Shown here: piece after piece, positions 30,978-31,095 of the stretch
How the letters are laid out: each line of letters opens with the position of its first letter
How positions within the stretch are numbered: position 1 is the stretch's first letter
Assembly (NCBI GenBank): GCA_021817655.1
Contig: JAKAGE010000001.1
Span: forward strand, 1 to 36,023
DNA: 36,023 nt
DNA from: a bacterium
Lineage (GTDB): Bacteria > Patescibacteriota > Minisyncoccia > UBA6257 > 2-01-FULL-56-20
Reading direction: 5' to 3'
Position numbers and translations under genes: made by a program
Notes under the pieces: model-generated
What the model was told of the DNA's origin: nothing
Databases searched by the model: none
What the model saw: only the letters and a program-made list of their open reading frames with translations

Positions 30978-31089
30978 AGATAACAAAATATCCCATATGC
31001 TGAGGGGCTCCGCGGAGGCGCGAAGGCGCCGAGCGCGAGGGGGCGGTCAGCAGGCCGCAACCCGTCCCCGAAGCGTATGGGGTATTTTG

Positions 31090-31095
<6 letters not shown>
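30978..31095. repeat. 118-nt structured palindromic element (family member B)
   Basis: AGATAACAAAATATCCCATATGC (30978-31000) pairs with GCGTATGGGGTATTTTGTTATCT (31073-31095). The interior hairpins parallel those of element A. The right arm overlaps the fusA stop codon. Confidence 0.8.

Follow-up and report, generated by a model that had tools for sequence, protein, structure and literature searches.

A branched hairpin at the fusA stop codon of a Patescibacteria genome belongs to a dispersed and undescribed family of modules that fold on themselves

Introduction

What kind of element is the long palindrome that lies across the fusA stop codon in the Patescibacteria contig JAKAGE010000001.1 (assembly GCA_021817655.1)? 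The stretch analyzed here (positions 1 to 36,023 of that contig, 36,023 nt, hereafter the window) covers the str/S10/spc ribosomal-protein region, on the minus strand, of a Paceibacterota metagenome-assembled genome (MAG). It holds two such palindromes, element A at the secY stop and element B at the fusA stop. A preliminary description of the sequence had placed both in one structured family and had read their closing arms, which differ between A and B and stay complementary within each, as the product of selection on structure rather than of mobility. Patescibacteria, also called the candidate phyla radiation (CPR), are a huge uncultured branch with tiny genomes, and their noncoding elements are almost unstudied. 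Here, we show that element B is a copy of a self-folding module that is dispersed among Patescibacteria as an undescribed family, and that this module spreads between sites. Contig DAIDIL010000005.1 of GCA_027459395.1 (strain L002), used throughout for comparison, is 99.6% identical to the window, and a Logan contig from SRR13240876 is 100% identical to it.

Results

Element B folds over the fusA stop codon

The fusA open reading frame (ORF), on the minus strand, carries the Pfam EF-G domains, and its stop codon is the TAA at 31090-31092. Element B (30977-31096, with the plus strand folding better) is a 120-nt hairpin made of a closing stem and a three-way-junction core, an arrangement that we call the type-1 module. 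The 25-bp closing stem spans the stop codon: 30978-31000 (AGATAACAAAATATCCCATATGC) pairs with 31073-31095 (GCGTATGGGGTATTTTGTTATCT), which confirmed the stem and reproduced its arm sequences exactly as first described. An inverted-repeat search delimited the arms as 30977-31007 and 31066-31096 (31 nt, 87% complementary). The left arm (30977-31001) consists of an inverted copy of the fusA stop region and the inner strand of helix P1 (inner P1, 30996-31001), and the right arm (31072-31096) holds the stop codon together with the last codon, AGA. Folded as RNA, B reached -80.3 kcal/mol on the plus strand (z -9.2) and -62.7 kcal/mol on the minus strand (z -6.8), and none of 200 shuffles was as good. 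Two T-G pairs lie in the closing stem; a third G-U pair, in helix P4, involves T31047, which is C in sister strain L002.

Element B also has terminator-like features. In its right arm, a U/T-rich tract (TATTTTGTTATCTC) comes after the GC-rich part of the stem, and on both strands the GC-rich inner stem is followed by UAUUUUGUUAUCUC. A terminator scan flagged 31066-31082 with its tail, around a loop of 70 nt. A promoter at 30805-30832 points at fusA, and a sigma-70-like promoter is aimed at B from 165 nt upstream.

Element B belongs to a family found in two classes of bacteria

Plain BLAST within the window detected neither similarity between A and B nor further copies, so the family link between the two rests on a motif block and on structure. 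Their local alignment (CTGAGRGG..CGGAGG.CGCGAAG..GCCGA) scored 30, against 18+-3 in dinucleotide shuffles (2/1000); it is a 35-nt block just inside the left arm and occurs in the same orientation only. Our first exact pattern was taken from this block. It gave 63 genome and 113 metagenome matches, mostly due to chance, and only three of them (L032, L042, and L069) were real. L032 and L042, two Saccharibacteria MAGs, carry the same core, and L069, a metagenome contig, carries it at the fusA stop, antisense to fusA. In addition, sister strain L002 has an extra copy immediately after tuf. A covariance model, R1, was built from four copies and was succeeded by model R2; the E values of both are rough. 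R1 and R2 together retrieved 22 copies, 21 of them distinct, in ∼300 kb of relatives. The copies discussed below come from these ∼300 kb, which surround ribosomal-protein operons of relatives sampled via their fusA and secY neighborhoods, and from the three pattern matches. One further candidate, L067 (25 bits), was dropped because it lies within a coding sequence.

In the covariance-model searches, element B scored 99 bits. Element A (8698-8827, plus strand), which lies at the secY stop (TAG 8818-8820), scored 63 bits with R2 and is a divergent member; a covariance model built without A still recovered it (36.5 bits, E value of 8e-8). The arms of A form a 27-bp perfect stem over the secY stop that includes the last two secY codons, a terminator-like U-rich run follows P4 on the minus strand, and the adk promoter directly follows the element. 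Together, the alignment score above shuffles and the recovery of A by a model that had not seen it bear out the parallel between the two interiors and the assignment of A and B to one structured family, with the same orientation and with right arms over the fusA and secY stops. Further copies, which the preliminary description had left to be looked for, were found by pattern scans and covariance models, for 21 distinct copies in all.

All hosts so far are Patescibacteria, namely, Paceibacterota relatives and the two Saccharibacteria MAGs; among viral contigs, one chance match and then no copies were found. A and B matched no family of Rfam 15, either at gathering thresholds or at E values of ≤10, where only generic long-hairpin microRNA models and leader terminators appeared, far below threshold. 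We found no description of such an element in CPR bacteria in the literature. The nucleotides and geometry of the core, compared by eye and with negative Rfam searches, do not fit a hammerhead (CUGANGA...GAA), a k-turn, signal recognition particle (SRP) helix 8, the sarcin-ricin loop, or mimicry of the GTPase center. ORFs that might be partners of the adjacent copies had no Pfam matches and no similarity to one another.

The conserved part of the module is a covarying three-way junction

The part that defines the family is a three-way junction of ∼75 nt, to which inner P1 adds about 6 bp rich in pyrimidines. In the CUGAG sense (the plus strand of the window), a closing stem of variable length leads through inner P1 and a tandem G-A/G-A to P2 (GGGG/CCCC) and the junction. 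P3 consists of P3a (3 to 5 bp), an invariant GGA/GA internal loop, P3b (5 to 6 bp), and a C-GNAG-G loop. P4 consists of P4a, a bulged A, P4b, and an AGCA-type loop, and the last junction strand contains a conserved GU. One subfamily has Watson-Crick pairs in place of the tandem G-A of P1/P2 throughout. In element B, the conserved core occupies 31002-31071 on the plus strand, with helices defined by covariation and given equally by the minimum-free-energy fold. It comprises the tandem G-A (31002-3/31070-1), P2 (31004-7/31066-9), P3a (31011-13/31033-35), the P3 internal loop (GGA 31014-16/GA 31031-32), P3b (31017-21/31026-30) with its GAAG loop (31022-25), P4a (31039-41/31061-63), P4b (31043-48/31053-58) with its AGCA loop (31049-52), and the GU of the junction strand J4/2 (31064-65).

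The preliminary description had proposed a statistical test of covariation. Pair counts set against shuffles and slid controls revealed strong, genuine covariation, located in the core. Across the 21 distinct sequences, 95% of 581 pair cells were paired, and double-sided changes were present in 23 of 28 pairs (148 cells), a figure that none of 500 shuffles reached; in slid controls, 38 to 47% of cells were paired. Alignments fitted to a model lean toward its structure. An independent run of MAFFT and RNAalifold, to which the structure was not supplied, agreed: it recovered P3 and P4, with 14 of 17 pairs covarying. The unpaired nucleotides of the core were more conserved than the sequences of the stems, as is characteristic of a fold that something recognizes.

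A reduced form occurs after secY in the closest other species (L189:8981-9060, the same as L190:11267-11345). There, we found only a P3-like hairpin, CTATC-GGA-GTCGCC-GAAG-GACGGC-GA-GATAG, which adjoins a small A/T hairpin within an 8-bp stem. This points to P3, together with its GGA/GA loop, as the minimal conserved unit.

The closing arms are mirror copies of the local flank

We compared the arms of 19 copies. They are locus specific, share no family sequence, and contain the last codons and the stop of the neighboring gene. The gene-side arm is the end of that gene, and the other arm is an inverted copy of it, perfect over 17 to 27 bp. The arm thus carries R and the stop of fusA in B, G-I-E and the stop of secY in A, G-I-E and the stop in the secY copy of L193, the last codons and the stop in the greA copy of L191, and the stop of tuf in the tuf copy of L002. 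Beyond the perfect arms, a degenerate mirror often runs on for 40 to 55 nt, where it enters coding sequence, a tRNA gene, or a promoter. For element B, the mirror (30934-30975, plus strand) is a degenerate inverted copy of the last 14 fusA codons (42 nt, 74%; score of 58, z 18) and lengthens the palindrome; its partner is the true 3' end of the fusA coding sequence (31099-31140, minus strand). This mirror was found in two independent assemblies. In the fusA mRNA, B and its mirror could form a 207-nt hairpin that takes in the last 14 codons, at -120 kcal/mol. The mirror of the L002 tuf copy covers about 50 nt of tuf (z 12), that of the L182 tRNA copy covers the 3' end of the tRNA gene (z 10), and that of the copies upstream of dnaE in L191 and L193 covers a pair of divergent promoters, one for the tRNA and one for dnaE, that have the module at their center of symmetry (z 12 to 18).

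Since a coding sequence cannot have been palindromic beforehand, one side must have been copied from the other. The proposal that selection on structure kept differing arms complementary therefore does not hold: the arms are inverted local flank, including last codons and stop, and local copying explains arms that differ yet pair without compensatory evolution, leaving the core as the place of real covariation. A perfect inner stem with a decaying outer mirror fits repeated fold-back template switching, which is most likely a better account of the arms than compensatory evolution. Template switching at quasipalindromes is known to homogenize the arms of inverted repeats (PMC7202029, PMC8604942). 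The flank duplications that we observed are inverted. For method, the lesson is that differing but complementary arms of palindromic repeats need not signal compensatory evolution.

Downstream of the B mirror lies a small plain bidirectional terminator hairpin (30884-30915), the arms of which repeat the outer arm of B (AACAAAATATCCC-TTCG-GGGATTTTTTGTT). It is probably the original fusA terminator, since shifted downstream. The L002 tuf copy is also followed by a small terminator, and these two cases suggest that module and mirror were interposed between the stop codon and the original terminator. A "partial core" upstream of the L002 tuf copy proved on inspection to be part of the mirrored tuf end.

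Two other loci show unusual flanks. In L191 (20430-20720) and L193 (20430-20710), a tRNA gene and dnaE have divergent promoters that nearly mirror each other over ∼55 nt on each side of a type-1 module, which suggests that one promoter arose by inverted duplication of the other. In L182 (1230-1600), one module is surrounded by three versions of the 3' end of a tRNA gene, namely, the real end, an adjacent inverted copy, and a degenerate direct copy 114 to 156 nt further on (z 8); the last is the only clear direct flank repeat that we found.

The module is gained, lost, and exchanged at gene ends

The preferred site of the module is the first 6 to 30 nt past the stop codons of fusA, tuf, secY, greA, and a tRNA, where it is always antisense to the gene. 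About 13 of the 19 distinct placements are of this kind, after stop codons and in antisense orientation. Three other placements lie upstream of, and in sense with, unrelated genes (rplC, dnaE, and an FAD-oxidase gene).

The subfamilies of the core do not cluster by locus. The core of B is nearest to the tuf copy of L180 (86 to 88%), not to its fusA copy; the fusA copy of L069 is 91% identical to the copy between rpsJ and rplC in L181; and the secY copy of L182 is nearest to the fusA copy of L180. Occupancy of a given site also varies. At the tuf end, the window has a core-less type-2 hairpin, and the 99.6%-identical L002 has a type-1 module between homologous outer arms. A relative with a 96% identical SecY has only the P3-like hairpin after secY. 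At the fusA stop, L184 (85% identical EF-G) has a type-2 hairpin, and L186 (81% identical EF-G) has a plain bidirectional terminator with arms homologous to the outer arm of B. With cores decoupled from loci and with such differences in presence, we conclude that the module is gained, lost, and exchanged. "Structure rather than mobility" was thus a false choice, as the decoupled cores, the polymorphic tuf end, and the plain fusA terminator of a distant relative show.

The type-2 hairpins form a second recurrent family that lies directly after stops (window 20479-20557, L184:12110-12190, L190:345-430, and L191:11275-11340). The one in the window is a long hairpin without a core immediately after the tuf stop (TAA 20558-20560). 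In each, an A/T-rich stretch (…CCTCTTTTTnnGACC/GGTC…AAAAAGAGG) extends the stem, and the apex is a small conserved hairpin (tCGTGTCTGCACG). They occupy the tuf end (window and L190), the fusA end (L184), and the secY end (L191), where they alternate with type 1. At the tuf end, 131 nt of the window (20409-20540) are replaced in L002 by 627 nt (11220-11847) that hold the type-1 module, the mirrored tuf end, the small terminator, and an 89-amino-acid ORF without a Pfam match.

The fold is selected on the antisense strand

A bias of G-U pairs toward the plus strand, antisense to fusA and secY, had been noted as a weak hint from A and B, and pair counts and folding energies now agree on that strand. 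Thirteen of 14 cores were more stable, by 2 to 12 kcal/mol, in the CUGAG sense, the exception being A. In well-aligned helices, about ten G-U pairs stood against one A-C, and the window/L002 polymorphism at 31047 exchanges G-U for G-C. According to GC skew, the favored strand in Paceibacterota loci is the C-rich one, for which a deamination bias would predict the opposite asymmetry. Folding B with DNA parameters likewise gave -42.8 kcal/mol for the plus strand and -36 kcal/mol for the other. Selection on the fold thus acts on the strand that is antisense to fusA, secY, and tuf, in the form of either RNA or single-stranded DNA (ssDNA). The copies of L032 and L042 are on the G-rich strand. An explanation of orientation by the replication strand was weakened by these copies and by the one between rpsJ and rplC.

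Discussion

Comparison with known repeats

ERIC/IRU of enterobacteria, Correia of Neisseria, BOX of pneumococci, bcr1 of Bacillus cereus, and RPE of Rickettsia are noncoding, multicopy elements of ∼100 to 150 nt that form long RNA stem-loops. They reside in transcribed intergenic regions or at gene ends, where they sometimes supply stops, occupy orthologous and nonorthologous sites, and can terminate transcription or alter mRNA stability in an orientation-dependent manner. The present module is likewise a dispersed, hairpin-forming repeat at gene ends. It differs in that it shares no sequence or Rfam similarity with them, has Patescibacteria as hosts, conserves an apical three-way junction instead of termini, makes its arms locally from the flank, and showed no TA or other direct target duplication. 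REP/BIME/REPIN sequences are simple hairpins of 20 to 40 nt that conserve a GTAG-type tetranucleotide at the 5' side and are linked to a RAYT gene. These extragenic palindromes mass just after genes, are read as hairpins, show orientation biases, act as terminators or mRNA stabilizers as a side effect, and are hot spots for further insertions. The module resembles them as a palindrome massed at gene ends with an orientation bias. Unlike them, it has a 75-nt branched core without a conserved terminal tetranucleotide, and no RAYT was seen in the loci read.

The attC sites of integrons are imperfect palindromes of 57 to 141 nt that start at or overlap the stop of the upstream ORF and conserve structure over sequence. 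Their functional strand is antisense to the ORF and lies, in chromosomal arrays, on the leading-strand template. The module resembles them in placing a palindrome at a stop codon with the favored strand antisense to the upstream ORF. It conserves its center and varies its ends, the opposite of attC, and has no R''/R' core sites, integrase, or cassette array. A search for the boxes R'' (RYYYAAC) and R' (GTTRRRY) gave AGATAAC/GTTATCT in B (5/7) and nothing similar in A, the L193 secY copy, the L191 greA copy, or L032. No integrase was found in the window or the loci, where the neighbors are fusA, tuf, secY, greA, dnaE, and tRNA genes.

As in bidirectional intrinsic terminators, B has an A tract, a GC-rich stem, and a T tract, symmetric on both strands and right after the stop; its "loop," however, is a conserved branched structure of 70 nt instead of 3 to 8 nt, and its stem runs 42 nt into the coding sequence. 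The one-step perfecting, outward growth of arms, and gradient from a perfect inner to a degenerate outer part also recall quasipalindrome template-switch mutagenesis in E. coli and yeast (PMC7202029, PMC8604942). Such mutagenesis concerns a few bases, whereas the module would need repeated mirror duplications of 20 to 70 nt at one hairpin family. [quoted passage not shown] A riboswitch or 5' leader would occupy a consistent 5' untranslated position before related genes, which the module does not. What sets the module apart is a conserved branched center with varying ends, arms templated locally, even from coding sequence, and inverted duplications.

Proposed origin and role of element B

We favor, by a modest margin of confidence, the view that element B is a REP/MITE-like structured module that forms the terminator-type hairpin of fusA and is a copy of a family spreading among gene ends. 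Its arms would arise by fold-back (snap-back) template switching of the nascent DNA strand at the hairpin, and the same process would keep the inner arms perfect while the outer mirror decays. Spread may occur by transposition or by ectopic copy-choice, with a preference for the stops of highly expressed genes. The whole palindrome, with its GC-rich stem, prefolded tip, and U-rich outer strands, would then replace or double the plain bidirectional terminator of relatives. A terminator role is suggested by the U-rich tracts, by the adk promoter directly after element A, and by the plain terminator with homologous arms at the orthologous site of L186. Element B could thereby serve as the terminator-type 3' hairpin of fusA and hinder convergent transcription coming from the promoter at 30805-30832. 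The core is presumably under purifying selection in single-stranded form, on the antisense strand, its loops being conserved and G-U pairs tolerated. These two properties point to a fold that may be read by a trans factor, either a mobility enzyme or a host protein.

Several observations weigh against this interpretation. Two copies lie between divergent promoters, where a terminator role makes no sense, and A has no U tract after its closing stem. The selected strand is antisense to the mRNA, which a pure role as terminator or stabilizer of fusA mRNA does not explain. The favored strand has no consistent promoter (a sigma-70-like one in 4/13 copies and none within 350 nt for 9/13), and the orientation bias is ∼6 to 2 when counted by independent loci. 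As for mobility, the surroundings of the copies revealed no transposase, reverse transcriptase, or other gene that could be a partner, and no autonomous parent element was found. Some copies (L181 fusA and L032/L042) lack extended arms. Direct target-site duplication is not general: direct repeats were significant in 1 of 19 copies (L182 tRNA, z 8), and B gave z 2.6. Finally, templated mutation could in principle also yield covariation in hairpin stems, so that covariation is no stand-alone proof of an RNA function.

The alternatives differ mainly in what would read the fold. The module might be a noncoding RNA, acting in trans or in cis, antisense to fusA, tuf, and secY or in sense 5' of dnaE, rplC, and the FAD-oxidase gene, with a junction that binds a protein or small ligand, with arms serving as P1 stem or terminator, and with copies maintained by selection for this function. 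The very strong covariation, the unpaired GGA/GA, GNAG, AGCA, and GU conserved across classes of Patescibacteria, and the asymmetry of G-U pairs and energies toward the antisense strand all speak for it, as do positions kept at fusA, tuf, secY, and greA ends in several species, the three sense copies upstream of genes, and the sigma-70-like promoters 165 nt upstream of B and 14 nt upstream of the L181 rpsJ-rplC copy. We nevertheless consider a noncoding RNA rather unlikely, given the 9 of 13 copies without a nearby promoter, neighbor genes that are functionally unrelated, subfamilies shuffled among loci, presence that differs between near-identical strains, a subfamily that has replaced the tandem G-A by Watson-Crick pairs, copies between divergent promoters that are probably untranscribed, and the absence of an Rfam family. 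The module might instead be a folded ssDNA site, read by a tyrosine recombinase or HUH enzyme in the manner of attC, the CTX-phage attP hairpin, or IS200/IS605/REP hairpins, and surviving mainly where the active strand is on the leading-strand template. Its structure is kept even in a probably untranscribed spacer. The position directly after stops, with the folded strand antisense to the upstream ORF, matches the arrangement of chromosomal integron attC sites, and in Paceibacterota loci this strand is the C-rich one (rarely single-stranded). Loops of the C-GNAG-G type and tandem G-A mismatches are very stable in DNA hairpins, and the module has both; the DNA-parameter fold of B prefers the plus strand. 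An ssDNA site is nonetheless quite improbable: the ends of most copies have no RYYYAAC/GTTRRRY boxes or conserved cleavage tetranucleotide, conservation is at the apex, whereas attC shows the reverse, none of the loci showed an integrase, RAYT, or TnpA gene, the L032/L042 copies are on the G-rich strand, and the copies neighbor core housekeeping genes instead of cassettes.

An ordinary MITE, with terminal inverted repeats, a target-site duplication, and a DDE transposase, would account for a small, noncoding, palindromic element in many copies with polymorphic presence, and the outer ends of A, B, and L032 do read (A)GATA(A/G). Yet the arms share nothing beyond local gene-end sequence, 18 of 19 copies have no direct duplication, the flank duplications are inverted, and no parent insertion sequence was found, so that this origin is largely refuted and its probability very small. 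That B is an unusually long intrinsic fusA terminator evolved in place, without family or mobility, would agree with its position, its U-rich tracts, and the plain terminator at the L186 site; 21 distinct homologous cores at many loci in two classes of bacteria refute it and leave it next to no probability. In a more speculative extension of the REP/MITE-like reading, the three-way junction would serve recognition and priming in a mobile element of a new kind, or would be a module domesticated by the host. It would copy itself to the 3' ends of highly expressed genes by fold-back/template-switch synthesis, giving inverted target duplications with terminators and mirrored divergent promoters as by-products, and a putative protein of Patescibacteria would read its fold antisense. 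We regard this full scenario as unlikely.

What stands apart from these choices is a well-supported structured motif, absent from Rfam, that lies where the most highly expressed genes (fusA, tuf, and secY) end, turns over quickly between strains, and is tied to a recurrent mirror duplication of flanks able to create terminators and promoters. If the element does cause the mirror duplications, it would offer a natural case of a hairpin as the driver of templated sequence innovation; if its core binds a protein, that protein would be a new player in the RNA or DNA metabolism of CPR bacteria.

Other features of the fusA-tuf interval

The genes fusA and tuf are neighbors in most bacteria. Here, the interval between them (window 21800-31000) is a variable island, as it also is in L180, L181, L182, L184, and L186. 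In the window, it contains MazG-like and Schlafen-type helicase, HTH and SocA_Panacea, metK, TspO, and DinB genes, and in relatives it contains restriction-modification, toxin-antitoxin, or type IV pilus genes. The island looks like an integration hot spot bounded by hairpin elements. Within it, a SAM-I riboswitch match (26365-26474, minus strand; 44.5 bits versus an Rfam gathering score of 44.4) lies upstream of the gene for a short (332-amino-acid) S-adenosylmethionine synthetase (25293-26291).

Near the fusA end, 30696-30766 (plus strand) folds like a tRNA: its acceptor-like stem has 12 bp (GCGGTGGGCCTC/GAGGTCCACCGC), and its T-arm is perfect (GGGGTTCGACTCCCC). ARAGORN made no call there, and Rfam gave only weak tRNA-Sec/mascRNA matches (E values of 0.07 to 0.5). 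Downstream of both fusA (30715-30858) and tuf (20198-20360), an inverted repeat of 18 to 23 nt brackets ∼110 nt of AT-rich DNA. Each of these blocks holds a sigma-70-like promoter aimed back at the gene end (TTGACG-16-TATTAT at 30805-30832 and the palindromic TTGACAGATCTGTCAA near 20296) and is followed by a short terminator (30892-30905 and about 20378-20405, respectively). For these bracketed blocks, small RNA genes, mirrored bidirectional promoters, and invertible promoters are all conceivable.

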